Assembly: GCF_004010195.1 (NCBI RefSeq)
Contig: NC_057718.1
Span: 79,040,676 to 79,063,215, forward strand
Direction: 5' to 3'
Length of the DNA: 22,540 nt
Origin: Chiloscyllium plagiosum
Taxonomy: Eukaryota
The notes under the pieces are model-generated. The model worked only from the letters and a program-made list of their open reading frames with translations, ran no database searches and was not told the DNA's origin. The translations under genes and the position numbers were made by a program. Within the stretch, counting starts at the first letter, position 1; the number at the start of each line of letters is the position of its first letter. Shown piece after piece: positions 1 through 22,540 of this stretch.

Positions 1-1427
1 GCATAGATGGTTTTCCCACCCATCATCACAAAATTAAAAGCAGCTGCTACCGGATGCTGGAGGTGCAGTTAAAGAAGTTGAATCCCTTGTTCAACAAATC
101 AATATATCCTTTTTTGGAAGACCCCACCATACCAAGTTGTAAATGTCCCATTAGCCCAGGAATTTAATGAAACGCTGTTTATGAACCTGAATGTATGGGG
201 CATAGGATTAAAATATTTGTTACATTTTGTAGATATGGCTATTAGATTCAGCGTTATCTACTGTAATAAGCAACAAAGAGAAATAGACAATAATGGATTT
301 TTTATGGATAAGTGAGTTGGCATAACTCCAGAGTGCCAACAAGATTTATGACAATTACAACATTTAAAAGGTATTTGGATGGGTATATGAATAGGAACGA
401 TTTAGAGGGATATGTGTCAAGTACTGGCAAATGGGCTAGATTAGTTTAGGATATCTGGTCAGCGAGGACAAGTTGAACCTAAGGGTCTGTTTCCATGCTT
501 TACATCTCTGACTCTAACACATGAGAATATGCAAAAGATTTTTCTTTGGACATGTGCAAATACTTAAATATAGTAATGCCAATGAACATTGCAGAAAGTC
601 CATTTGACAATGGTTTGGGTAAAAGAAATCATGCAGTAGCTGATGACATGTAATCCAAGATGAATTGAATTATCAGCTTCATTTTCTCTACCCACTTAAA
701 TGTGCTATACGATGGCAAGACAGAGTTTATCAAAGTTGCAAGCATGAGAAAAAATTCAGAGAACATTACACTTCATTCAGCCATTTTGGGGAACTTCTGT
801 TTTCATGACCGGGTTTACAACTAGTGGACTTAAGGAATGGAAAAGTCTGTGAAAAAAATTAGAGGATGTGATGGGAAGGCTCTTAACAGTATAACATGGG
901 AAACAGACCATAAAAGCACATTCCCGACAAGTAGTAAAGGTGCATTATGCATTTTCACGAAGATGATAATAAAATGGCACATTGGGTGTTTCTTGTGATG
1001 TGGAATACAGAGGGGGGAGATTTGGAATTTCAAATGTTTGGCACAGATGCATGTGCTAATCGTGGCGAGTGAGATTGTCTGCCTGAAGTGGGTTCAGGTG
1101 TGGTGTGCCAGCCAGAAGGATCAGAATATTGGAGAAAGGCCCTGCATTGAGCTGGTAGGTCTATGGGCAAATACAAAAATTGCTTAATTATCCAAAAGGA
1201 AGCTAGAGAGATATGAGGGCATTGGAGTGGAGTCATAATTTGAGAGATATGCATCACTAAGAGAAAGAGAGTGATTTATAGCCAATCTTGACAGGAATAG
1301 TCTACAGAGACCTCAATAAATCAGGTGACAAGCCAAAGAAAATGCACAGAACCACAAATCCCAGTGATTGAGAGGCATTTGTAACTGCCACTAGATTAGA
1401 AGACCGTATTTGGTGAACTAAACAACA
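1..1427 (+). mobile_element. Decayed Ty1/copia LTR retrotransposon (GalEa-like), integrase region and INT-RT linker; starts before the window
   Basis: Manual translation across frameshifts and stops gives HRWFSHPSSQN*KQLLPDAG (zinc-binding HH part), KTPPYQVVNVPLAQEFNETLFMNLNVW..LHFVDMAIRFS (118-255) and EYAKDFSLDMCKYLNIVMPMNIAESPFDNGLGKRNHAVADDM (~525-650). These match copia/GalEa integrase motifs such as LPLA.DFNE.VAMDL and TAAESPFSNGLCERNH. Interrupted by a CR1 tail at 351-517. Confidence 0.8.
351..517 (+). mobile_element. 5'-truncated CR1 (HER1-type) LINE 3' end
   Basis: ACAATTACAACATTTAAAAGG...GATATCTGGTC...TACATCTCTGACTCTA closely matches the 3' end of the long CR1 at ~4125-4296. Confidence 0.85.
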
Positions 1428-2197
1428 CATCTTAGAGAAAAAAGATAGCAATTGTTTTAGCCAAGGTTTTTGCCAAAGTAGGGTTCCAAAGCATGTCCGA
1501 TTTGGAGGAAAATGGAAGCAGGCAAACAATCCACGTATTTTTAAGTGCAGAGTCAGCATAGATGTACGCCACAGGCACAAATTCCAATGTGAGTTGTACA
1601 AGAAAATTTTCTGATTCAGTATGTGGATGTACCTACTAGAGAAGGTGCAAAGCTTCATTTACCTTTGTGAAATAAGGCAGGGCAAGTGACTGAGGTGTCA
1701 GTGAGGGAGCACTTTGGGGCCAGTGACCATAATTATATTGGTTTAAAAATAGTGATGGAAAAGGATTGACTGGATCTAAAAGTTGAAGCTCTGAATTGGA
1801 GGAAGGCCAATTTTGACGATACTAGGCAAGAACTTTTAAAAGTTGATTGGGGGCAGATTTGCAGGTAAAGGGACAGTTGGGAAGTGGGAAGCCTGCAAAA
1901 ATGAGATCATGAGAGTCCAGAGACAGTATAATCCTGTCGGGGTGAAAGGCAAGGCTGGGAGATGTAGGGAATACTGGATGACTAGAGAAATTGAGAATTT
2001 GGTCAAGAAAAAGAAGGAAGCATATGTCAGGTATAGGCAGCAGAGATAGGTTGAATCCTTAGAGTACAAAGGCAGTAGGAGTATTTTTTGGCGGGAAATC
2101 AGGAAAGCAAAAAGCAGACATGAGAGAGTTTTGGCAAATAGGTTTAAAGAAAATCCAAAGGAATTTTAAAATTCCATTAAGGACGAAAAGATAGCTA

Positions 2198-2276
2198 GCG
2201 GTTCCACACGTAAACTGACTTGCTAATCTTTGAGGACCCCTCAAAGATCAGCAAGTCAGCCTATGTGTGGAACCGC
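2198..2276. repeat. Fold-back inverted repeat, 38-bp arms, 3-nt loop
   Basis: 2198-2235 is the reverse complement of 2239-2276 at 34/38 positions. Confidence 0.95.
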
Positions 2277-2515
2277 AAGAGATGAAGAGATACTAAGCGA
2301 GTATTTTGCATCAGAGTTTACTGTGGAGAAAGAGATGGAAGATATAGAATGTGGGGAAACAGATGGTGACATCTTGAAAAATGTCCATGTTATAGAGGAG
2401 GTGTTAGTGGCTTAAAACGCATAAAGTTGGATAAATCCCTGGGACGTGATCAGGTGTGCCCTGGAACTCTGTGGGGAGTTGAGAAGTGATTGTTGCACCC
2501 CTTGCTAAGATATTT

Positions 2516-2837
2516 GATTAGATTAGATTAGATTAGATTCCCTACAATGTGGAAGCAGACCCTTCGGCCCAACCAGTCCACATCGACCCTCCGAAGAGTA
2601 ACCCACCCAGACCCATTTCCTTAATGCAACTAATACTATGGGCAATTTAGCATGGCCAATTCACCTGACCTGCAAATATTTGGACTGTGGGAGGAAACCG
2701 GAGCACCCGGAGGAAACTCACGCAGACACTAGGAGAATGTGCAAACTCCACACAGGTAGTTGCACGAGGCTGGAATCAAACCTGGGACCCTGGTGCTGAG
2801 AGGCAGCAGTGCTAACCACTGAGCCACCATGCCGCCC
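2516..2837 (-). mobile_element. Full-length tRNA-derived V-SINE (HE1-type) inserted in CR1
   Basis: Minus strand begins GGGCGGCATGGTGGCTCAGTGGTTAGC (A box), then GGTTTGATTCC (B box), the V-domain TGTGTGGAGTTTGCACATTCTCC..GGGTGCTCCGGTTTCCTCCCA, a CR1-like tail and an (AATCT)n end at 2516-2539. Confidence 0.92.
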
Positions 2838-4296
2838 TGTGTATTATTGATAGTCACAGGTGAGGTGCCTGAAGACTGAAAGTTGGCTAATGTGGTGCCA
2901 CTATTTAAGAAAGGTGGTAAGGAAAGGCCAGGGAACTATCAACTGATGAGCCTGGCATCTGTGGTGGGCAAGTTGTTGGAGGGAATCCTGAGGGACAGGA
3001 CTGACTTATATTTGGATAGGCAAGGACTGATTAGGGATAGTCACCATGGCTTTGTGCATGGGAAATTGTGTCTCACGAACATGATTGAGTTTTTTGAAGA
3101 CGTAACAAAAAGGATTGATGAACATAGAGTGGTGGACGTGATCCAAATGGACTTAAGTAAGGTGTTCGACAAGGTTCCTATGGTAGACTGGTTAGCAAGG
3201 TTAGATCACATGGTATACAGACAAAACTAGCCATTTGGATACAGAACTGTCTTGAACATAGACAGAAGGTGGTGGTAAAGGGTTGCTTTTTAGACTGGAG
3301 GCCTGTGACCAGTGGTGTGTCACAAGGATTGATTCTAAGAACACTTTTTTTTGTCTTTTATATAAATAATTTGGATGTGAACATAGAAGGTATGGTTGTA
3401 AGTTGCAGATGATACCAAAATTGGAAGTGTAGTGGACAGTGAAGAAGGTTACCTCAGTACAATGGGATCTTGATCAGATGGGCCAATAGGCTGATGTGAG
3501 GCAGATGGAATTTAATTTAGATAAAGTGAGATGCTGCATTTTGGAAAGGCAAATCAGAGCAGGACTTATACACTTAATGGTAAGGTCCTGGGCAGTGTTG
3601 TTGAACAGAGACCTTGGAATGTAGGTTCATGGCTCCTCGAAAGTGGAGTTGCAGGTAGATAGGATAGTGAAGAAGGCGTTTGGTATGCTTTCCTTTATTG
3701 GTCAGAGCATTGAGTATAGGTGTTGTGAGGTCATGTTGTGCAGGGCATTGGTTTGGTCACTTTTGGAATATTCTGGTCTCCCTGCTATAGGAAGGATGTT
3801 GTGAAACTTGAAAGATTGACCAGGATGTTGGCAGTGGTGGGGGGGGGGGGGTTGAGCTATTGGGAGAAGCTGAATAGGCTAAGGATGTTTTCCTGGAATA
3901 TTGGAGGCTGAGGGATGACCTTATAAAGGTTCATAAAATCATGAGGGGTGTGGATAAGGTAAATGTACAAGAAGTTTTCTCTGTGGTGGGGGGAGTCCAA
4001 AACTAGAGGGCACAGGTTTTAGGGTAAGAGGTGAAAGATTTAAAAGGGACCTAAGGGGCAACATTTTCACACAGAGGTTAATGCATATATGGAATGAGCT
4101 GCCAGAGGAAGTGGTGGAGACTGGTGCAATTACAACATTTAAAAGTCATCTGGGTGGGTATATGAATAGGAAGGGGTTAGAAGGATATGGGCCAAATGCT
4201 GGCAAATGGGACTAGAGATATTTAGGATATCTGGTTGGCATGGGTGAGTTGGACTAAAGCGTCTGTTTCCGTGCTGTACATCTGTGACTCTAACTC

Positions 4297-5546
4297 AAAT
4301 TTGGAGAATACTCAGGTTGCAGATAAACGTCAGCCCTGCTGTACAGAAAGCATCATTGTCAAATGGGACCAAAAGGTCAAGGAAAGGTTGCGAACCAGAA
4401 GTTTTGAGCAGTGCCTGGGTGACAGATCAGTATCAATTCACCTATAGTGGGCAATGTGGTTTTTATAATATTTTTGACTCTCTTTAACTACCCGTTCATG
4501 GGGTCTAAGTCCACAAATCTAAAAGCAGCTTTTCTGGAGGGTAACTTACTTCAGAGAGAAGTGTACCTACAGCATTTTGAAGGAAGCATCCAACCTAGGT
4601 ATCTCTGGAAATTGAATAAAATATTTGTGTTGGTAAATACTTTCTTGTGTAGTATTTTTTGGTGATGGCACTAAGGTGGGTACCTTTATGATGCATGGTG
4701 TCGATTGTTTTCTTAATGAGATAGCAAAATGAGTTTGAGAAGGGATTTAAAATCGTGCTTCAGGTCCTTTTGGATATGTTGGTTTGGAGATGAAGTAGTT
4801 TGAATCAGATGTCGTTTCACATCAACAATCTTTCTTGCAAAGTGCTAGTTCCATCATCATTGGTCTTGTCAGGTCTGCATAAAAAGATGTGCCTGCTTAT
4901 GTTGCTGGCTTGTCAGCAATTGGTTAAGTGTGCAAACGAGAGCAGATGCAAATTTTGCTGAGTTAAAACTTCTGATGAAAAACTTGAAAGGCTGAGCATA
5001 TCTAAAAAGTAAATTTAAATGTACGGATATGTATGCTGAAATATTCAGCTTTAGATGATCATGACAACATTTTTTGTGATGTCTCACCTGCCAACCTCAT
5101 TGAGGAATTTTTCAGTGTAGGTGGTTCATAATTCCTCATGGCAGGGTGCATGGGAAGAAAAGTAGCCTTGTGGTTTGGGAAGTCAAACAATGAGTAGTCA
5201 AGAGTATAATGAGCATGGAAACTTTTGCACTGGTAGATGTGATGGATATAGCGTTTTATTTATCTAAGGTTTAGAAGAAATGTTCTGTGTAAGGGGTCTC
5301 GAGGAACCATACCTATTGAATGCTATCTACATAACAAACCCTTGGGACAGTGTACGTTCTACAAAATATGTAAATGAAATTAAACTGAGAATAAAAATAG
5401 CAGTCTAAAGCAAATTTTGGAGCAAATTAAAATATCAAAACACAGATAGGGACATATAAGCAAACATTTATTGTGTTATTTTACTAAAGGAAATGCCTCT
5501 AATGAGAAGTTAGGGGAACCTGGAAGAAGGACACTTTGTATTGTAA
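4297..5546 (+). mobile_element. Ty1/copia (GalEa-like) reverse transcriptase plus RNase H remnant; continuation of the 1-1427 element
   Basis: KVKERLRTRSFEQ (KARLVARGFEE-like), NLKAAFLEGNLLQREVYL..LWKLNK, FMMH..D (HVDD-like, ~4685), FCDVSPANL (RNase H FSDAS-like), ETFALVDVMDIAFYLS, STKYVNEIKLRI, ending LEEGHFVL* at 5544-5546. The INT-RT-RH order is that of copia. Confidence 0.82.
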
Positions 5547-5631
5547 ACCTTAGGGATGTTAAATTTATTTTGTGTGTGTGTATCTTTTAAGTATGTTTGT
5601 GAAATTTATTTTTTAGAAAAGGTTCTGACAG

Positions 5632-5858
5632 TGTTAGAAATAATGGTCTCTTTACGAAATACCCAGGACATGCTCCAGAGATAATCGAGAGCAACTGATG
5701 CTCATTGGAGCATGCATTTAACTCCATCACGAAGGGTGGTTGTTTAGGTAGGGATGTGAGTAGATTGTTGTTTGTACTGAAATCTGAAAAGCTAATTAAT
5801 ATTTGAGCAAGGCAGACTGACTCATACTTTGATTTAATAGATAATTAGCAGTATAACA
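5632..5858 (+). repeat. Candidate 3' LTR of the copia element
   Basis: Bounded by inverted TGTTA (5632) ... TAACA (5858), about 85 nt after the pol stop and just after a decayed purine tract (AGAAAAGG). The 5' LTR is outside the window, so this is unconfirmed. Confidence 0.5.
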
Positions 5859-6318
5859 ATCCTGAATTATGGGTAAATGTATGTCATCTCTTTGTTCTTC
5901 AGAAATGTCTGCAGTGGCCAAAATAGTTTAGCATATGTTAGCAGCAGGGACAGTTTAAGCAATAATGATTTCTACACAGTATCAGAGGCCTATGATCTAT
6001 GAGGCAGCTCAAGTCTTGAACTATGATGGAAATCAGCCTCTCTGGTTATAGTGGTAGCAAATATTTGTTCACGGCAACTGTGGTACTTAAAACCAGCCAG
6101 CCTGTAGAAATGGAGTCACTAAATCAATATTTTGCCTTAGTTTTCAGTGTGGAGGACATTGTGTCATCCAATAATAATGGATAATTCAGAGATTATATAA
6201 AAAAGGAGGAACTTAGAGCAATCATCATTACCACTAGAGAATAAGTACTGAGCAAACTGTTGAGATTGAAGGCAGATAAGTCCTCCAGGGCCTGATAGTC
6301 TGCATCCTAGGATCCGAG

Positions 6319-6763: not shown

Positions 6764-7058
6764 TGGATGTAGGTTTGCTCGCTGAGCTACAAGGTTTGTT
6801 TTTAGATGTTTTGTCACCATACTAGGTATTTATGTTTGTTTCCTTGGTTTGGTGTCCCCATCTGTGTTTGGTGATATTATTTCCATATGAAATCCCAAAC
6901 ACACAAATAGAAAGCAGGCTACACAGCCAGTGCTTCACCCGGTGGCTCACTGGAGATGTTACCCAGTACGGTGACGAAACATCTGAAAACGAACCTTCCA
7001 GCTCAACGAGCAAACCTACATCCAGAAACTCAACCTGAGCTACAAATGTTCTCAAAAC
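6764..7058 (+). mobile_element. Non-autonomous Penelope-like element terminus with inverted repeats and a degenerate hammerhead motif
   Basis: ~65-bp imperfect inverted repeats at 6764-6828 and 6960-7024. CTGGAGA-T-GTTACC-cagtac-GGTGAC-GAAAC-ATC at 6950-6983 resembles a PLE hammerhead. Confidence 0.7.
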
Positions 7059-7958
7059 AAAGGTTAATCATATCATTGGGAAATTTAGAATCCATCATTA
7101 AAAGTCAAAATCAATCCATCGCAGTCAGCGTGGTTTTATGAAGGGTAGGTCATGCTTGATTAAATTGCTACAGTTCTTTGAAGGTGTAACAAGCAAAGCG
7201 GATAATGGGGATTCTGTCGATGTAATATATCTTGACTTCAAGGTGGTGCTGCACAAAATGTCAAGACACAAAATTAGATTACATGGGGTTAGGGGTATTT
7301 ATTACTTGGCTAGAGTATTGGCTAACGAAGAGTAAGCAGTGAATTGGGTTGAAAAGAAATTGGTGTTTTTCTGGTTGTAACTGCGGGGGTGCCACAGAGT
7401 TCGGTCTTGGGCCCATCTATTTACAATCTATTTTAATGACTTGGATGCAGCAATAGAAGTACTATAAACAAATTTGCAATTGACACTAAAATAGGTGGAG
7501 AAAATAAGTTGTCGTGAAGAAGTAAAAATTTACAAGTGGGTATGGATTGATTAGGTGAATGGACAAAATGTGACAGATGAACTGAAAGGGTGAGGTTATC
7601 AGTTTTGGTTGCAGGAATAGAAAGATGATCTGTAATCTAAATGGAGAGAAACTTCAGTAGCAAAAGTGTTAGCATTTAGACAAGCTCTTGCTGCTATCAG
7701 TGGCCGTTCCCTTACTAATGTGGATTGCATACAAAAGACAGTGTTCTTCCCTTAATCCTGAAAAAGGACCAAAAAAAGCATTATGCTGTACAGGAATCTT
7801 GCTGTCTAATTAGGAAGCTTTGATTTCTCCCAAAAGACTTTCTTACTTAGTCTTTTGACTTGATAGGGAAATTCCATGTGTCGATTTACTGTGCTGCTAA
7901 TGTGATTAGTTGCCTGGGAGATGGGTCCAAAAGAAAATGTTGGCATATTCAAATGTAG

Positions 7959-8174
7959 TGTGGTGCTGGAAATGTGTACAGCAGGTCAGGCAGCATCCAA
8001 GGAGTTGGAGAATCAACGTTTTGGGCAAAAGCCCTTCTTCAGGATTCCTGATGAAGGGCCTTTGCCCAAAACGTCGATTTTCCTGCTCTTCAGATGCTGC
8101 CAGACCTGCTGTGTTTTTCCAGCACCACACTCTCAACTCTAATCTCCAGCATCTGCAGTCCTCACTTTTGCCTC
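7959..8174 (+). mobile_element. Palindromic Penelope-derived short element with 13-bp TSD and two back-to-back hammerhead motifs
   Basis: Direct repeat TATTCAAATGTAG at 7946-7958 and 8175-8187. ~87-bp inverted arms centred at 8045. Confidence 0.85.
8010..8082. ncRNA. Two minimal type-I hammerhead ribozyme motifs on opposite strands, both with G12>A (probably inactive)
   Basis: + strand: CTGATGA-A-GGGC-cttt-GCCC-AAAA-CGTC (8048-8075). - strand: GAATC-CTGAAGA-A-GGGC-tttt-GCCC-AAAA-CGTT-GATTC, with stem I GAATC/GATTC. Confidence 0.65.
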
Positions 8175-9116
8175 TATTCAAATGTAGATTCCTATGCTAC
8201 AGTAAGAATGCCTCTTTGACGTGACTGCATATATGGAACTGCACCTGGTATTTAAGTGAGATTAGATCGTTTGGATTAATGTGATTGTCAAGAGGAAAAT
8301 CCTCTACTTTTTGTTGGAATCACTTTTTAAATAATGTACACAGAAGAAAAGGTCGTTGAGCTCACACAAATTCACTATGTTCTACACTCATCCCTGTGAC
8401 CATGCTGTGCTTCTCCTAGAAGTAAAGTAAGAAGGAATTACTGCATCATACTCCCTCTCCTATTTATCCCCTTGAGGACAAGCAGGCAAACCTCGGGAAA
8501 TTCTGAGTAGGTCATTAATCAAATGTTTTCTGTCTGGCTGCCATAGTTTTTCATAAATATGCTTTACACCTTAAAGAAAAACTGCAAGGAAGCAGCCCAC
8601 TTTAGGATAGTTATTCTGAACATTGAACATTCTTAAAGATTTTATCTTCTGCTTTCCCAATTGAAGTATTGCTGTCCAGTTCTGTTCAACCATGTCACCT
8701 CAAAACATCTTATTCACTTGTATGCTACTGATGTTTTTAATAATTTTAAGATCCAAATCCAATCTCAAGTCTGTGCCTGTCCAGTTAGTATAGATGCAAA
8801 TGATTAAAGAAAATTTTAGTATATTTGGACCAGTGATTATCCGCATAACACCCTTGTATCATCTTTAGATCCAATATGATTGAGACGTATGGGAATCCCA
8901 GTGAATTTCACCAAACACTTGGTTGAACTTCTCTGTGATCTGATTTATACTAATTGGTCAATGCAATAGATCTTAAGACCCTGTTCATCTTGGTGACAGC
9001 ACCCAAACCTTTGAAGAGCAATCAATGACTACCTTAAGTATAGTCTTTTTTGCATCCTTACCTGTTAGAAGCATGAGTTTTGTAAATCTGTTAATGTAGT
9101 TGTACATCATTTTATC

Positions 9117-9366
9117 TTAGAGTCATAGAGATGTACAGCACGGAAACAGACCCTTCGGTCCAATGTGTCCATGCCGACCAGATATCCCAACCCAATTTAG
9201 TCCCACCTGCCAGCATCTGGTCCGTATCCCTCCAAACCCTTCCTATTCATATGCCCATCCAGATGCCTTTTAAATGTTGCAGTTGTACTAGCCTCCACCA
9301 CTTAATCTGGCAACTTTATTGCATACACATACCACCCTCTGAGTGAAAAAGTTGCCTCTTAAGTGT
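9117..9366 (-). mobile_element. 5'-truncated CR1 (HER1-type) LINE 3' end, antisense
   Basis: TAGAGTCATAGAGATGTACAGCACGGAAACAGACCC... is the reverse complement of the tail at ~4050-4296. Confidence 0.9.
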
Positions 9367-10340: not shown

Positions 10341-10367
10341 CGTAATCTTTCTTTCTTTACATTTCAG
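10341..10367 (+). promoter_or_regulatory. 3' splice acceptor (branch-point-like CGTAAT, polypyrimidine tract, CAG)
   Basis: CGTAATCTTTCTTTCTTTACATTTCAG immediately precedes the start of MAP3K4 homology. Confidence 0.85.
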
Positions 10368-11746
10368 AAAAGGTGACTGTGCCAAAGCAGCTGACATCTA
10401 AAGACAAGAACATTGAAAATGTAACTGTAATCAGTGATAAGCATGGGAAGAAACAACGCTCCAATATGCGAACAACAGAAAGAGACCATAAGCAAACAGT
10501 GCAATGTGCATTTATGTTAGACCCTATCACTGGGTCTTCTGCAAAGAATTCAGTTCCTAACAAGCCTTACCTCTGCCTTAGCTGTAGTAACTCCAACTCT
10601 CCAGTCTCGGTGCCCGTTAACAGGCCAACACGGCAAACTTCTAGAACAGATTGCCCAGCTGACCGCTTGAAATTCTTTGAAACTTTGCGATTACTTCTTA
10701 AGCTTACCTCAGTTTCTAAACGAAAGGAGAAGGAGCAGAGGGGTCAGGAAAATACCTCTTATGAATTGAACAGATCAAATGAACTTATTTGGCTGGAGCT
10801 ACAGGCCTGGCATGCAAGTCGTAGCATAAGTGATCAGGATGTTTACCTATACACTGCGCGCCAAGCTGTCCCTGATATTATTGATGAAGTTTTGAACTTC
10901 AAAGTAAATTATGGAAATCTCTGTGCTTGCAAAAGGGATGGTTATGCTGATGCTGCTGGAGATGATGAGATTTTTCAACAGAAGACTGAATGTTTTAGGA
11001 CTTCAGGAACACATGTCTTTGGTCACAGTAATTATCAGGAACACATCCAGTGTCAGAGAGTTGCATTTGAGCAGGTTAAAAGTATTATGGAGCTGCTAGA
11101 GTCTGTGGAAGCACTTTATCCATCATTGCAGGCCCTTCAGAAAGACTATGAGAGGTATGCTGCAAAGGACTTTCAAAGCAGAGTGCAGGCGCTCTGCTTA
11201 TGGCTAAACATAACTAAAGATCTGAACCAGAAATTGAACTTAATGCGCACAGTCTTGGGCATTGAGAAATTACCAAACATTGGCTGGCCAGTGTTTGAAA
11301 TTCCATCTCCTCGTCCTTCTGGAGCAAGTGACCCAGATGAGGAAGAGGACAATAGTGACAACTGCTCACAGACTTGCCTGTTGGAAAATGAAGATGCGCT
11401 TGGACATGAAGATGAAATCACTGAGTCAGAAAATGACAGAGAATATAGTGCATGTAAGCACAAAGCAGGGATACATGTTCATTTTCAGTCTTTGGATGGT
11501 CTCCCAAAGAAATTTGAAAGATCCATGTCTGAAGATGAAGCACCATTAATGGGAAATCAGACTGCTGAGTGCCCATCTGACACTAGTGTCAACAGAAATT
11601 GTCAAACCTCTATTTATAGGCCTTTTGTTGATAAAGCACTGAAACAAATGGGATTACGGAAGCTCATAATGAGACTTCACAAGTTAATGGATGGGTCCCT
11701 ACAAAGGACTCGAATAGCACTGGAGAAAGATGTTAGTACACTGGAG
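10368..11746 (+). CDS. MAP3K4: MAP3K4 (MEKK4/MTK1) large internal coding exon, N-terminal regulatory region; ortholog of human exon 3; phase 1 start, phase 0 end
   Basis: Translation contains MAP3K4 signature blocks RQTSRTDCPADRLKFFETLRLLLKLTSVSK, NELIWLELQAWHA, EALYPSLQALQKDYE, IGWPVFEIPSPRPS and TSIYRPFVDKALKQMGLRKLI.RLHKLMDGSLQR. Flanked by ttcag| and |gtaaga. Length 1379 nt = 2 + 459 codons, open throughout. Confidence 0.96.
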
Positions 11747-11752
11747 GTAAGA
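11744..11752 (+). promoter_or_regulatory. 5' splice donor GAG|GTAAGA
   Basis: Consensus donor exactly where MAP3K4 homology ends (..STLE). Confidence 0.9.
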
Positions 11753-14148: not shown

Positions 14149-16051
14149 AACAAATTACTGCAGACACTGGAATCTGTGCTGAAGACAATGCTGGAGATCA
14201 CAGCAGGTCAGACAGCCTCCATAGGAAGAGAGCAGTGCTTTGAGTCTAGATGACTTTTCATCAGAGCTGAAGTAAAGTGTGAAGAGGACAGCTTTTATGC
14301 TTCAATTTGGAAGAATTGGGGTAGTGGGTGTAGGGTGCTGATGGAGCAAGGATGTTAACAGTTCAGCTTAAGTGATTGGAATGTCAGAATGGCAGAACAA
14401 TGATGTGTCCCTGCCAGACTTGAAAGGATACAAGTAGTTCTCTTATAACGCCATAGTTCGGTTTCCGTGTGATCTTGCTTTTTAAGAAAATCATGCGATG
14501 TGAGCATCATTTAAACTAATGAGGCCAGAATAGCTTTATAGCCAATACAGGTAAGGAAAGTTCACGTTCAACAAATATTGGTCTAAATTCGGCAATCATG
14601 TTATAGCCAATTTGTGTTGTAGAGACACATACTAAAGAACTGTGCTATAGGAGAACCCCGTTAGTAAGTGGGATGAGGGGACGGGAGGACATGATAAGCT
14701 AAAAGATAGGGAAGAGATATTCACAATTTAAAGGTGTTCAACTCCATATTGAGTCCAGAAGGCTGTAAAGTGCCTAGTCTGAAGATGAGATGTTCCTCCA
14801 GTTAGCACTGTGATTCACTGGAACACTGCAGCATGTGGAGGACAGGCATGTGGTTATGTGAGCAGGACACCGTGTTAAAATGACTGGCTGCATGAAGGTC
14901 GGGGTGGTTCTTGTGCACAGATCGGAGGTGTCCTGCAAAGTGGCCACCCAGTTTGCATTGGGCTTCTACAATGTAGAGTAGGCCACATTGTGCACAGCAA
15001 ATACAATACACAAGATTGGAGGGGGTGTAGATGAAATGCTACTTCACCTGAAAAGACTGCTTAGGCCCTGGGATAGTGAGCAGGGAGGAGGTGAAGGCCC
15101 ACGTGTTACATCTGTGGTTACATGGGACGGTGCTATGCAGAGGGGGTATGGTGTTGGTGGTTGTGGAATCAACTAGCATGTCCTGGAGGAAACGATCCCT
15201 GAGAAATGAAGGCAGGGAGTGAGGGGAAAGATGTGTTTGGTGGTAGCGTTCTGATGGAGCTTTGAAATGTCGGAGAATGATCTTTGAACACGGCTGTTGG
15301 GATGAAAAGTGATGGCAAGAAGAGCCCAATCACATTGTTGTGAGTAATGGCAAGGGCAAGTGTGGAAGCTCAGGTGATAGGATGCATTTAAGGGCCCTGA
15401 TAACTGGGACCCATGTAGGTGCCCTCCTTTGACTTGGCTGAAGTGAGATGAATTAAAGGAGAATTGTTCAGTGAGAGAACACGTTCAGCCAGGTGGAGGT
15501 GAGTGGTGGTGGTGGGTGGGGATTGTTCAGGCCTCTGGTTGAGGAAGAAGCTGAGAGCTCTCAGACCATCCTGGTGGGGAATGGAGATACAGAGGGATTG
15601 GGCATCCATGGTGAACAGGAGGCAGTTAAGGCCAGGGAACTGGAAATTGTCAATATAAGGGAGGGCATCAGGAACATTGCAGATGTAGGTAGGCAGGGTC
15701 TGTACAAGTTGAGAGAAGGTGGAGCCATGGTAGGAGGAAATGAGCTCAGTGGGGCAGGAGCGATGGGCCTACTGGGGCAGTCTGGTTTGTGGATTTTGGG
15801 AAGGAGGTAGAAATGGGCTGTCCAGAGTTAGGCGACTACTAGGTTGAAGGCAGTGGGAGAAGGATCTCCAGAGGTAATGAGCCTTTGCAAGATAAGGAAC
15901 CGTGCACCAGACTACAGCAGCACTACCTTTTGTTTGATAACAGAGTTAGGGTTGGACCTAAGACAGCAAAGTGTAGTAATTTCAGAAGGGGACAGGTTAG
16001 AGTGGGTGAGAGGAGCAGAGAAATTGAGATGACCAATGTCACATTGGCAGT
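14149..16051 (-). mobile_element. Penelope-like retroelement (Neptune-type): RT, Cys linker and GIY-YIG endonuclease; decayed and internally deleted
   Basis: RT MDAQSLCISIPHQDGLRALSFFL..GTYMGPSY (15609-15400). Linker PCNHRCNT. GIY-YIG YCICCAQCGLLYIVE..HL..SHFN..LEEHLIFRLGTLQPSGLNMELN, stop at ~14721. Terminal hammerhead-like CTGATGA-A-AAGTC-atcta-GACTC-AAAG at 14264-14238. Confidence 0.9.
14431..14661. mobile_element. Tigger/pogo-like MITE inserted in the PLE 3' UTR
   Basis: TA flanks. Imperfect terminal inverted repeats GTTCTCTTATAACGCCATAGTTC and GAACTGTGCTATAGGAGAAC. No coding capacity. Confidence 0.6.
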
Positions 16052-16625
16052 TCAGAGGCTAGGAATACTTCAGTGTGTAACTCACCACCTGACTCCCCAA
16101 AGCCTAAAAGGGACAAGTAAGGAGTGTGATGGGATACTCTGCACTTGCCTGAATGAGTACAGCTCCAAAAACGCTCTAAGATTGACAACGTCCAGAACAA
16201 AACAGTCTGCTTGATTGGCACCATAATAACCACAAGCATCCACTCCCTCCACTACCAGCACTCAGTTGGAGCAGTGTGTAATATTTAGACTATGCAAGGC
16301 AGAGAAATTTGCCAAAGATCGTTAGCACTTTCCAAACCCATGTCGACTTCCATCTTGAAGGAAAGTGGCAGCAGATACATAAGCGCAACACCATCTGCAA
16401 GTTCCCCTCCAATCCACTCCTCATCCTGACTTGGAAAAATATTACCGTTTCTTTGCTGTTGCTGAATCAAAATCCTGAGACTCTCTCCCTAACAGTATTG
16501 TGGATCTGCTGAGCATGGACAGCAGAGGTTTAAGAAAACAGCTCTCCACCAGGTTTTCAAGGCCACCCAGGGGTTGGCAATTAATGCTAGCCTGCCAGCA
16601 ATGCCCACATCCCACACAATAAAGG
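16052..16625 (+). mobile_element. Right part and 3' UTR of the LINE split at 14148
   Basis: Resumes TCAGAGGCTAGGAATACT.. (continuing ..GCTACAAAAGTAGG). Ends GCCCACATCCCACACAATAAA. Confidence 0.8.
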
Positions 16626-16796: not shown

Positions 16797-17517
16797 TAGG
16801 TCATTTAGTTATACAGCACAGACACAGACTCTGTCCAACAGGTCCAAGCTGACCAGATATCCTAAATAAATCTAGTCCCTTTCTATTTATATACTCATCC
16901 AGATGTTTTAAATGTTGCAATTGTACCAGCCTGCACCACTTTCTCTGGTAGCTCGTTCCATGTCCCTTGTCCCTTTTAGGCTTTGGGGAGTCAGGTGGTG
17001 AGTTACACACTGAAGTATTCCTAGCCTCTGAACTGCCAACGTGACATTGGTCATCTCAATTTCTCTGCTCCTCTCACCCACTCTAACCTGTCCCCTTCTG
17101 AAATTGCTGCACTTCGCTGTCTTAGGTCCAACCCTAACTCTGCGTGGAAAATGTTGGATCCCTTTTTAAATCTTTCCCCTGTTACCTTAAACCTATGTCC
17201 TCGAGTTTTAGATTCCCCCATCCTGGGAAAAGACCTTGTCTATTTACCCTATCCATACCCCTCATGATTTTATAAACCTTTATAAGGTCACTCCTCAGCC
17301 TCTGCTCCAAGGAAAATAGCTCCAGTATATTCAGCCTCTCCCCATATTTCAAACCCTCCAACTCTGGCAAAATCCTTGTTAATCTTGTCAAAACAGTTAC
17401 AAGTTTAACAACAGTCTTCCTTTGGCAGGGAGACCAGAATTGCATGCAGTATTCCAATAGTGGCTTAACTGATGTCCTGTATAGTCACAACATAACCTCC
17501 CAATTCCAATCCTCAGC
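16797..17517 (-). mobile_element. CR1 (HER1-type) LINE 3' portion, antisense, carrying a templated insertion
   Basis: ORF 17182-17457 EYCMQFWSP..RLTRILPELEGLKYGERLNILELFSLEQRLRSDLIKVYKIMRGMDRV. The 3' UTR matches 4050-4296. Confidence 0.9.
16966..17142 (-). repeat. 177-bp inverted duplicate of 15941-16117
   Basis: 173/177 identical by manual alignment, with no indels. Confidence 0.97.
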
Positions 17518-17519
17518 AA

Positions 17520-17725
17520 TCTAGGTTTGTTCAATATGTCATTTCAGTTGCATGACACAGTGATCTTTTGCTATACATTCTGTGGTCTTACTCCACAGCT
17601 ACCTGATGAAGGAGCAGCACTCTGAACGCTAGTCCTTCCAAGTAAACTTGTGGGACTATATAACTTGGTGTTGTGTGATTTTTAGCTTTGTCTACCCCAG
17701 TCCAACACCGGTTCATCCACATCAT
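17520..17725 (+). mobile_element. Penelope-like 3' terminus with a degenerate hammerhead
   Basis: CTGATGA-A-GGAGC-agc-ACTCT-GAAC-GCTA at 17603-17631, followed by GGACTATA..GGTGTTGTGTGATTTTTA..CCCCAGTCCAACACC. Confidence 0.7.
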
Positions 17726-17739
17726 GGCCAAATAACTCA

Positions 17740-17963
17740 GTAAGAGGGCCTAGCAATCACTTCCCTAGCTTCACAGAGTTTTAGGGTACACCTGATCGGG
17801 TCCCAGGGATTTATGCATTTTAAGTCGTTCAGCACCACGTCTTATGTAATATGGACATTTTTTAAGTTGTCACTATTTATTTCCCCACATTCTCTGTTCT
17901 CCATATCCTTCTGCACAGTAAACACTGATGCAAAATACTCATTTAGTGTCTTCCCCCATCTCC
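17740..17963 (-). mobile_element. CR1 ORF2 internal fragment, antisense
   Basis: TLNEYFASVFTVQKDMENRECGEINSDNLKNVHIT is homologous to ILSEYFASEFTVEKEMEDIECGETDGDILKNVHVI at ~2290-2395. Confidence 0.88.
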
Positions 17964-17964
17964 T

Positions 17965-18515
17965 TGTATTACATATATGGGCCATTTGATTCTGCAGGTT
18001 CATACCTGTGTTTATACTACACACAAAACCCCTCCCACTCCCCTTTATCCACCCCATTGCTGAATCCTTCTAATTTTTTTCTCCCTCAAGTTTTTAGCAA
18101 TTCTTGAATGCATGTATGCTGCTCACTTCAATGAGTGGTTGCCAGTTCAATGTTGTAAGCAATCTGGGAAATTTCTTCCCAGTTCTCTTTTTCGTTTATT
18201 GGTACTAAGCTTATGCTAATGGCACCTAATTCTGGGCATCTCGACATAGAAATGTCTGTTACTTTTAAAACTTTTCATTGTCTTCAAGATCTTTTAACAG
18301 ACCATCCTTCAGTATTTTCTTTTGTAAAAGATAGAGCACCAGCTTGTTCGGTTTTTCCTGATGGCTATAATTTACAGTTTTGATATTCCTGTGAATCTCT
18401 TTGCATTCTTTTCAGTACTTCTATTTCTTTTTTATGATATTGAGACTCAAACTGTTTGCAATAATCTTACACCATTAATATAACTTCTCTGCTTTTCATT
18501 TCTATCCCTCCATCA
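17965..18515 (-). mobile_element. Old diverged CR1 3' region, antisense
   Basis: GGGCCATT..CATACCTGTGTTTATACTACACAC..CCTCCCAC tail followed by decayed reverse-strand CR1 motifs (GTGAATCTCTTTGCATTCTTTTCAGT..GAGACTCAAACTG). Confidence 0.55.
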
Positions 18516-18640: not shown

Positions 18641-19124
18641 GGAAGGATATTGTTAAACCTGGGTGCAGGAAAAATTAACAAGGATGTTGCTGAGACTGAA
18701 GGGTTTGTGTTATTAGGAGAGGCTGATTAGGCTGGGGCTTTTCTCCTTGGAGTGTTGGACACTGAGGGGTGACCTTTATGGAGGTTTTTAAAATCATGAG
18801 GTGCATGGATAGGGTGCTTAGGCAAGGTTGTTTTCCTGGGCTGGGGTGTCCAAAACTAGAGGGCATAGGTTTAAGGTGACAGCGAAAAGATTTAAAAAGA
18901 CCTGAGGGATAACTGTCTCATGCAGTGGATGGTGTGTCTATGCTACAAACTGCCAGAGGAAGTGGTGGAGGCAGGTACAATTACAACTTTAAAAGGCATC
19001 TGGGTGGGTGTATGAGTAGAAAGGGATATGGGCTTGGTGCTGGCAAATGGGACTAGGTCAGATTGGGATGTTTCATTGGCACAGATGAGTTGGACTGAAG
19101 AGTATGTTTGTGTTGTATGACTAA
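18641..19124 (+). mobile_element. CR1 (HER1-type) LINE 3' portion
   Basis: Colinear with 3790-4290 (AGGATGTTG..CTGAGGGGTGACCTT..CCAAAACTAGAGGGCATAGGTTTAAGG..GCCAGAGGAAGTGGTGGAG). Confidence 0.9.
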
Positions 19125-20805
19125 TGGGTAATATCTTCAGTTTTGTGCCGTGGATGAACTCTGCCATCACCTTTTTTCATGACTGACATTGGCATAGGGT
19201 TAAAGTGAGGACTGCAGATGCTGGAGATCAGAGCTGAAAATGTGTTGCTGGAAAAGCGCAGCAGGTCAGGCAGCATCCAGGGAACAGGAGAATCGACGTT
19301 TTGGGCATGAGCCCTTCTTCAGGAATGGCATAGGGTTACATGGCATCATCCAAGATTTGTTAATTGCATTGTTTATTTGGTCATCATGAGAGGGCATGTT
19401 CTCCACACCACCTCATGTAGTGCAGATTGCGATACTGACCACACTCTTGCCAGCAGCAATGCTTGGGTATACCTTCAAAGTTTTACAGTTCCAAAAACGT
19501 TGGCTTGGTGCACATGAGCATCACTGAACAAGTAACAATGCCAGAAATTGGCATTTTGCGCTGTTGCTAGAATGATTACTTCCCATCAGAGATATATCAG
19601 GAAGAGCTGAGGCTGGATTTGAAGTTGTTAAATGTAGTCATCCATGGTAAATGCAAAATAACAGATTGGTTGGAGACATACTCAGTTAAGATGACACCTG
19701 TCATTGATGTAGAAAAAAACCCATATGATGTACTTCATAAATTCAACAGCAAAAAACTGGAAGATACTTTCCAGGTAAAGGATATGGAGAAATTGCCAAA
19801 ATAAACTGGATCAACTTGTGTTGAGAAATCCAGCTTTCTTCGATAATGCAAAGTTACAATCTGCATAAAAAGGAATTGAAGATGTTTGGTCCTATCATAA
19901 TTAAAGTTGCCACTCTAAAGTCTGTAGATGATGGAATGCTTTCAGACAGAAGTAAACAGATATTTCTGTGAATTGTACTTCTGATGCGATGAATGTATTG
20001 AAGACCATGCTTGACGTTATTGCACTATGTCCTATCACGAATGAGTTAGCTCAGCTAAACTGAAAGAGGCCATACAGTTCTTAACAAGCAGGCAAGTGTC
20101 AACGATGGAATCCCTGACAAACTGTTCAAGTTGAGGTGTTCCATCAGTTGCCACACTTTTATGTCCTTGGCCACCTTTGCTTGCTCTATCATTCCATAGG
20201 AGATGCATAATGCAAAATCATCTTGCTATACAAAGAGAAAGATTGCAGAATTCCACAATAAAATATGGTGTCGCTCTCCTTAGTACCATGGAGAAGGTAT
20301 TTTTTCCTAAGGTTGTATGACACAAATTATGAGCATAAATCTTCTTTATATACCAGCTTTAAAAGAAATTTAAGGAACAGGGCATAGCACTGGCACTCTC
20401 CTCAAGGAAGGAGTATACAAGATGGGGAAAATAAGCTCACCGAAGCTCCTCAGTATCATCTACTTCCGTGACAATTTGCATTGTACAAAGGAAGACAGTC
20501 ATGTATTCAAAAACTTCTGCTGAGTGAGAAGTTGGTAGAGTCAGGCGATCAATTGGATCCCAGAGATCCACTTCAAGGATGCTTGCAAGAGTGAAATTAA
20601 GTGCCTTTGACATTGATAATCATATTTGGGAGTCAGTAGATGAAGACAGGAAAATAGCAATACCTGATGCGCACTAGTGCGCACCATGACGACTCGTGGC
20701 TACAGTAGTTTGACAACAGGCTGACACTGAAAATAACTGACACTTGCTGGAACTGCTCATTACCAGGATTGTCCTCTTTAGTCAGCAGCAAAGGTGCACC
20801 ATATG
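19125..20805 (+). mobile_element. Decayed RTE-clade LINE (endonuclease, RT and C-terminus, with deletions); may begin at ~18540
   Basis: VLHTTSCSADCDTDHTL (APE end), TDWLETYSVKMTPVI, LKEAI..NDGIPDKLFK, P*EMHNAK.., PKLLSII, HFKDACKSE, RIVLFSQQQRC. Confidence 0.75.
19203..19325 (-). mobile_element. 123-bp single-arm Penelope-derived element starting at a hammerhead motif, 13-bp TSD
   Basis: TGGCATAGGGTTA at 19190-19202 and 19326-19338. Minus strand begins TTC-CTGAAGA-A-GGGC-tcat-GCCC-AAAA-CGTC-GATTC. Homologous to 8045-8168. Confidence 0.85.
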
Positions 20806-22050: not shown

Positions 22051-22540
22051 CACCAATGACATAGGTAGGAGGAGGGCTGAGGATGTTAGGCAGGCTTTCA
22101 GGGAGCTAAGTTGGAAGCTCAGAGTTAGAGCGAACAGAGTTGTTGTCTCTGGTGCCACGTGATAGAGAGTCGAGGAATAGGGAGAGACAACAGTTAAATG
22201 CGTGGCTACAGGGATGGTGCAGGAGGGAGGGATTCCGGTATTTGGATAACTGGGGTTCTTTCTGGGGAAGGTGGGTCCTCTATAAACAGGATGGTCTGCA
22301 CCTGAACCTGAGGAGCCCCAGTATCCTTGGTGGGAGGTTTGCTAGTGCTCTTGGGGGGGGTTTAAACTAACTCTGCAGGGGCATGGGAACCCAGACTGTA
22401 GCATTAGGGTGCAGGACCTGGAGTGTAGGGACATGGCATCAATCTCAAAGGAGGGTGCCTGTAAACAGGAAAGTGGTTTGAAGTGTGTATACTACAATGC
22501 AAGAAGTATACGAAATAAGGTAGGTGAACTTGCAGCATGG
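22051..22540 (+). mobile_element. CR1 LINE: ORF1 SGNH/GDSL esterase C-terminal half and start of ORF2 endonuclease; continues beyond the window
   Basis: TNDIGRRR (block III) .. LNAWLQGWCRREGFRYLDNW..YKQDGLHLN (block V, DxxH), then LKCVYYNARSIRNKVGELAAW from ~22478. Confidence 0.9.

Follow-up and report, generated by a model that had tools for sequence, protein, structure and literature searches.

The question raised by this locus is whether a single exon of the whitespotted bamboo shark, Chiloscyllium plagiosum, forms a conserved protein-coding circular RNA in which one lap of translation ends at a stop codon overlapping its own start, as a preliminary description had proposed. There is disagreement over whether translation of circular RNAs serves a function or is noise, and few arguments for function would be stronger than a circle-specific start and stop conserved over long evolutionary times. 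Exon 3 of MAP3K4 is a fair test case. Human circMAP3K4 (hsa_circ_0078619) derives from this exon, is RNase R resistant and is reported to encode circMAP3K4-455aa, a product of 455 aa with two unique C-terminal residues that binds AIF; neither of two predicted IRESs was active, and m6A at A862, read by IGF2BP1, was needed for translation, with a further m6A candidate, A787, having a minor effect alone (PMC8976336). Both the exon and the human circle were already known. Among the literature matches listed, none dealt with circMAP3K4 of a fish or shark; most subscription papers lay outside the coverage of this search.

The shark exon was analysed in a stretch of 22,540 nt of genomic DNA (the window; Table 1). 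It is the third exon of the shark MAP3K4 gene and is orthologous to human exon 3. Translation of positions 10370–11746 was 100 % identical to MAP3K4 isoform X3 of the same species (XP_043552237.1), with 76–88 % identity to other cartilaginous fishes and 58–61 % to tetrapods (59–61 % to mammals). The exon covers residues 75/76–534 of the 1,562-aa shark protein, and its boundaries match both the RefSeq protein and human exon 3, in agreement with the identification of gene and exon in the preliminary description. The encoded part falls inside the Pfam domain MEKK4_N (PF19431) and the kinase domain (Pkinase) lies beyond it at residues 1298–1555, such that a product of this exon alone would have no kinase domain, as had been stated. 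Compared with the linear MAP3K4/MEKK4/MTK1 protein (MEKK4_N plus Pkinase), of which the exon is a part, no difference was seen. Three shark cysteines show the spacing (30 and 25 residues) of human C163/C193/C218, which act as redox sensors in the GADD45-binding domain (PMC7314524). What the exon specifies in the linear kinase is its N-terminal regulatory region, and this accounts for the conservation of the exon; coding for linear MAP3K4 is the established function of this stretch. The rest of the protein had no match in the window, placing the nearest exons more than 10.3 kb upstream and more than 10.8 kb downstream and indicating that both flanking introns exceed 10 kb.

Table 1. Position of the exon, its splice sites, candidate start and stop codons, m6A motifs and intronic repeat arms in the window
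Feature	Position	Strand	Detail
Retroelement-like fragment	3711..4076	+	71 % complementary over 397 nt to downstream 17138–17515
Upstream-intron repeat arm	8044..8185	+	84 % complementary over 142 nt to downstream-intron 19186–19326
Nearest upstream-intron arm with a cross-exon partner	9134..9353	+	Partner 18911–19117, 72 %
Polypyrimidine tract and AG splice acceptor	10343..10367	+	Would-be back-splice acceptor
MAP3K4 (MEKK4/MTK1) large internal exon	10368..11746	+	1,379 nt, phase 1 to phase 0
GTGA	10373..10376	+	In-frame GTG (Val) overlapping the shifted-frame TGA that ends the putative one-lap ORF
Out-of-frame AUG followed immediately by a stop	10419..10424	+	Minimal uORF upstream of ATG 10466
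Out-of-frame AUG in strong context	10443..10520	+	−3 A, +4 G; 25-codon ORF overlapping ATG 10466
First in-frame ATG of the exon	10466..10468	+	429-aa one-lap ORF
DRACH motif orthologous to human A787	11143..11147	+	Kept; shark A at 11145
Position orthologous to human A862	11218..11222	+	A862 corresponds to 11220; not DRACH, though Asp is kept
Out-of-frame AUG 17 nt before the donor	11730..11732	+	On the circle opens a 16-codon ORF crossing the junction
GTAAGA splice donor	11747..11752	+	Would-be back-splice donor

The length of the exon leaves a remainder of two when divided by three, so in any circle made from it the reading frame changes at the junction and a stop codon soon follows. Frame +2 is open over 459 codons. 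Recalculation on the circularised exon bore out the reading given earlier: joining donor to acceptor yields an ORF of 460 aa when read from GTG 10373 and of 429 aa when read from ATG 10466, and both ORFs end in ...STLEKR, with L-E-K-R followed by the TGA at 10374–10376, which overlaps the GTG at 10373–10375. The ORF therefore crosses the junction and stops over its own start; the start at the overlap is GTG, encoding Val, as in 18 of 18 elasmobranchs, rather than AUG. When the codons of the exon were shuffled 20,000 times, an ORF of at least 429 aa from the first in-frame ATG was obtained in 62.9 % and one of at least 455 aa from the first ATG or GTG in 52.5 %. The first shifted-frame stop fell within two new residues in 14.0 % of shuffles and overlapped an in-frame ATG or GTG in 19.2 %, and both occurred together in 1.9 % (about 1 in 50 per exon). 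When the exon start was slid along the exon, the overlap arose at one of 398 positions, namely the same GTGA site. This indicates that a long one-lap ORF comes almost automatically with such an exon phase and that the tight overlap is uncommon, although across the many exons of a genome it would be expected to recur.

The human arrangement is consistent with these figures. The primate ortholog has 454 exon codons, which implies 1,364 nt, equal to the published human coordinates, and counting from Met to stop gives exactly 455 aa. The human ORF thus has an ATGA overlap at the same position, and what had been stated of the human product stands when set against the report (PMC8976336). Shark and human share an orthologous single exon with the same phases and a one-lap ORF that ends two residues past the junction and is without the kinase domain; the overlap is common to them by descent and is not a second independent occurrence. 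However, the human start is AUG whereas that of the shark is GUG, the human m6A site A862 is without a DRACH counterpart in the shark, and circle and peptide have been reported experimentally in human (in one paper), whereas the shark circle is putative. A longer human MAP3K4 circle, hsa_circ_0078617, uses the same donor with an upstream acceptor (PMC5798954), so the overlap is irrelevant to that circle, and its existence counts against a conserved circle built around the overlap.

Other reported coding circles provide further comparison. In circ-AKT3, which encodes AKT3-174aa, start and stop codons overlap or are adjacent (PMC6716823), and here too a one-lap ORF stops beside or over its own start and yields a shortened piece of the kinase whose last few residues are new; it differs in being a multi-exon circle of another gene, with an AUG start, a reported IRES and the motif UAAUGA. 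Stagsted et al. (2019) described AUG circRNAs that are abundant and conserved and derive from 5′ exons. These circles resemble the shark exon in having an ORF on paper and long flanking introns, but contain an annotated start codon, which the shark exon does not. Genome-wide, their circle-specific stops were reported to be without constraint and their translation without ribosome-profiling support (PMC6487579). In addition, linear by-products of overexpression plasmids can mimic translation of a circle, as reported for circZNF609 but not for MAP3K4 (PMC7544230), which counts against a conserved coding circle.

To follow the start and stop across vertebrates, 100 species were compared with one protein each (19 cartilaginous fishes and 81 tetrapods), leaving out extra isoforms, unnamed proteins and the sequences of Narcine and Sphenodon, both of which are without the exon start. 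Codons were deduced from the protein sequences, Ser being taken as AGY and Val or Leu as NTG, and changes were counted by Fitch parsimony on the protein tree. The first codons, E-K, and the exon phases were fixed in all non-teleost species with data, as would be expected of a conserved circle. The overlap codon encoded Met in 75 species, Val in 19 (all 18 elasmobranchs and the walrus), Thr in four, and Ala and Leu in one each; Met-Thr occurred at this position in chimaera and frog. ATGA was certain in 42 of the 100 species and likely in 32 (Met-Ser), a further 19 could have TGA without AUG, and in seven TGA was impossible (Rhinoraja, the kiwi Apteryx, Ictidomys, the mustelids Gulo, Lontra and Neovison, and Motacilla). 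An NTG-A arrangement is thus possible in 93 of the 100 species, and loss of the TGA required at least five independent events on the tree.

The Met column underwent six changes versus a median of 4.5 over the first 32 columns in the same species, and four of the other six Met columns of the exon never change. At the residue after the Met or Val, seven of nine changes kept an A-starting codon. Of the 15 changes at the two codons, five destroyed the TGA versus 7.4–7.9 expected neutrally (P 0.10–0.16, from only 15 events and protein-inferred codons). This slight lean towards retention is not significant and would be explained by amino-acid similarity. The preliminary description had made its case depend on conservation of the TGA beyond the constraint of the linear frame; at the protein level, and with low power, neither start nor stop was found to be conserved to that extent.

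Met was absent from the exon start in all 117 anchored teleost proteins (121 examined, many of them isoforms, with four unanchored; 10 of the 117 were read by eye), and basal teleost exon starts read E-K-V-A, E-K-A-A or E-K-V-V, which cannot hold a TGA. Ancestry of Met versus Val is a tie at two steps, with Met in chimaera and tetrapods and Val in elasmobranchs and most basal teleosts. The start of the exon gave no alignment with relatives from hagfish and lamprey, a representative-set search added only distant or unnamed relatives, and coelacanth, lungfish, gar, bichir and sturgeon were not among the best 120 of 794 and best 120 of 776 matches. A metagenome scan for vertebrate exon DNA returned 15 loci of 27–44 % identity, none of them usable at the codon level. 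The proposal that a conserved coding architecture is as old as jawed vertebrates is not supported by this comparison, given the absence of AUG from 18 of 18 elasmobranchs and from teleosts and the repeated loss of the TGA.

The initiation context of the shark ORFs was then considered together with the m6A motifs. GUG 10373 is a near-cognate start with A at both −3 and +4, and circularisation would put an out-of-frame AUG (11730) 22 nt upstream of it. For AUG 10466, the base at −3 is a purine. At this position, 30 codons past the exon-start Val, all 18 elasmobranchs carry Met, chimaera carries Ile and all 81 tetrapods carry Leu; the elasmobranch Met could represent start-site turnover and would then favour a conserved circle, but replacement of Leu or Ile by Met is also frequent as a conservative change. 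Against such a circle, out-of-frame AUGs shadow both candidate starts. The exon contains 43 DRACH motifs. Human m6A positions were mapped through the primate protein; counted from the first base of the exon, 787 and 862 are each the second base of an Asp codon that follows Lys, and the fit of both to an m6A motif placement supports this numbering. The A787-type motif is kept in the shark, as a conserved circle would predict, but the motif on which human translation depends is absent, position 11220 being outside DRACH. As read from the genome, the shark exon has neither the AUG start nor the A862 motif, both of which define the human coding circle. Across vertebrates, the AUG, its overlapping stop and the A862 motif are replaced as quickly as the linear codons around them. 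The comparative result is mostly against function and adds a modest caution on the much-cited circMAP3K4-455aa.

Several features of the locus are those of exons prone to circularise, namely canonical AG/GT sites, a long exon (1,379 nt) and flanking introns of more than 10 kb. Exons that give rise to single-exon circles are unusually long and lie between long introns (PMC6376117). Eight inverted matches were detected between the two introns (1,274 nt, 71–84 %, 883 bits) and five direct matches (857 nt, 559 bits). Each of the two introns also contains internal inverted pairs stronger than those across the exon, reaching 177 nt at 98 %, and the arm nearest to the exon also pairs within its own intron (4042–4293, 79 %). 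Two pieces of decayed retroelements were noted: one in the upstream intron (2880–3227) gave a weak reverse-transcriptase match (RVT_1) and one downstream of the exon (22110–22367) a weak GDSL-lipase-like match, both under the Pfam cut-off. GDSL-lipase-like domains occur in some LINE ORF1 proteins, and from the reverse-transcriptase match we take the intron repeats to be LINE-like.

Evidence for the circle itself was sought in published and sequence data. A survey of circular RNAs in the liver of this species recorded 4,558 circles, and none of the 10 circles named in it was of 1,379 nt (PMC7759564). Proteins shaped like the product of the circle, of 252–804 aa and running from the exon start to a two-residue tail, were also searched for; the junction tail was present in none of the best 77 of 88 matches, which is weak evidence as most teleost ends were unanchored, and among the matches listed those with an anchored C-terminus ran into intron or the next exon. 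In a sequencing-run search, 18 contig sets from seven studies contained at least half of the sampled words of the exon; no RNA set was among the matches listed, which carries no weight for or against the circle. Back-splicing of the shark exon at some level may be regarded as about equally likely to occur or not.

Taken together, the locus is probably best explained as an ordinary annotated MAP3K4 coding exon, perhaps circularised, with an incidental one-lap ORF. Its conservation would be driven by the linear N-terminal regulatory region, including the GADD45-binding, redox-sensing cysteines, and a long exon between introns of more than 10 kb with inverted retroelement fragments may allow some back-splicing. 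The frame shift at the junction would lead to an early stop and, on paper, to a one-lap ORF without the kinase domain. The GTGA would then be a remnant of linear codons (Val or Met, then an A-starting codon) and not a selected start and stop, and any shark circle would most likely be untranslated or translated only as noise. Of the conserved coding circle first proposed, the exon identity, the ORF arithmetic and the human precedent hold, while the conserved coding architecture is not supported; a conserved coding circle in the shark is unlikely, and one that does code is probably unselected. Points that run against the ordinary-exon explanation are the scarcity of the overlap in shuffles (1.9 %), the 93 of 100 TGA-capable species, the seven of nine changes after the Met or Val that kept an A-starting codon, the Met found throughout elasmobranchs 30 codons downstream and the peptide support in human.

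A less likely explanation, to which only a small probability is given, is that the shark circle forms and is weakly translated from AUG 10466 or GUG 10373, without selection and in this lineage only, the position of the stop being incidental. The purine at −3 of AUG 10466, the number of DRACH motifs, the long introns and the thousands of circles in the liver of this species (PMC7759564) are all consistent with such translation. However, the strong out-of-frame AUG at 10443 opens an ORF overlapping AUG 10466, and GUG is near-cognate with A at +4.

It is more doubtful still that the exon-start Met is kept in many lineages as the start of an N-terminally shortened linear kinase isoform, arising by leaky scanning or from an alternative first exon. 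In elasmobranchs the Met at 10466 would take its place, and the overlapping TGA would be a by-product. Predicted isoform X5 of Ascaphus starts at the exon-start Met, and Heterodontus X3, Cetorhinus X4 and Narcine X1 are predicted to start at the 10466-type Met, but these models are automated predictions. Isoform models of the bamboo shark, as of the epaulette shark, splice a different upstream exon to the acceptor at 10367–10368 and so have another N-terminus, which also fits; the alternative upstream exon of the bamboo-shark isoforms was not found within the 22,540-nt window. Against a shortened isoform, conservation of the Met column does not exceed that of neighbouring columns, and teleosts have neither Met.

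The least probable explanation, slightly below the last, is an ancient jawed-vertebrate exon-3 circle under selection, back-spliced and translated by cap-independent initiation. Chimaeras and most tetrapods would use the ATGA, and sharks and rays, having lost that AUG, would use GUG or a downstream AUG that became fixed later. The inverted repeats across the exon, the frequency of ATGA and the human report would favour this explanation, and the missing AUG, the TGA losses and the absent A862 motif speak against it. The product of the circle would, with equally little probability, be a kinase-less N-terminal fragment sequestering GADD45, acting in trans on the kinase domain or binding AIF. If true, this would be a coding circle conserved for more than 400 million years with turnover of its start codon, and its GADD45-binding, redox-sensing fragment would tune p38/JNK signalling.

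Several further observations concern the gene and its introns. Isoform models of MAP3K4 in several mammals, birds and lizards omit, in frame, the exon following the exon-3 ortholog. The exon start of teleosts is strongly diverged from that of other vertebrates, and in many pairs of teleost isoforms the sequences at the acceptor differ by a single residue (e.g. K-A-D-L versus K-D-L), which suggests a tandem acceptor of the NAGNAG type. In the downstream intron, an inverted pair (15941–16117 and 16966–17142) is 98 % complementary over 177 nt with its arms 848 nt apart and is probably a recent retroelement insertion or a local inversion. The upstream intron contains short, near-perfect hairpin or palindromic elements (7957–8131, 2195–2279 and 6764–7024; 82–88 %) that resemble small transposon relics; no tandem repeats were detected in the window. 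GC skew is strongly positive (up to 0.43) in the repeat-rich intron blocks at 1001–6000 and 15001–16000 and reverses at 17001–18000, in line with the orientation of the repeats.
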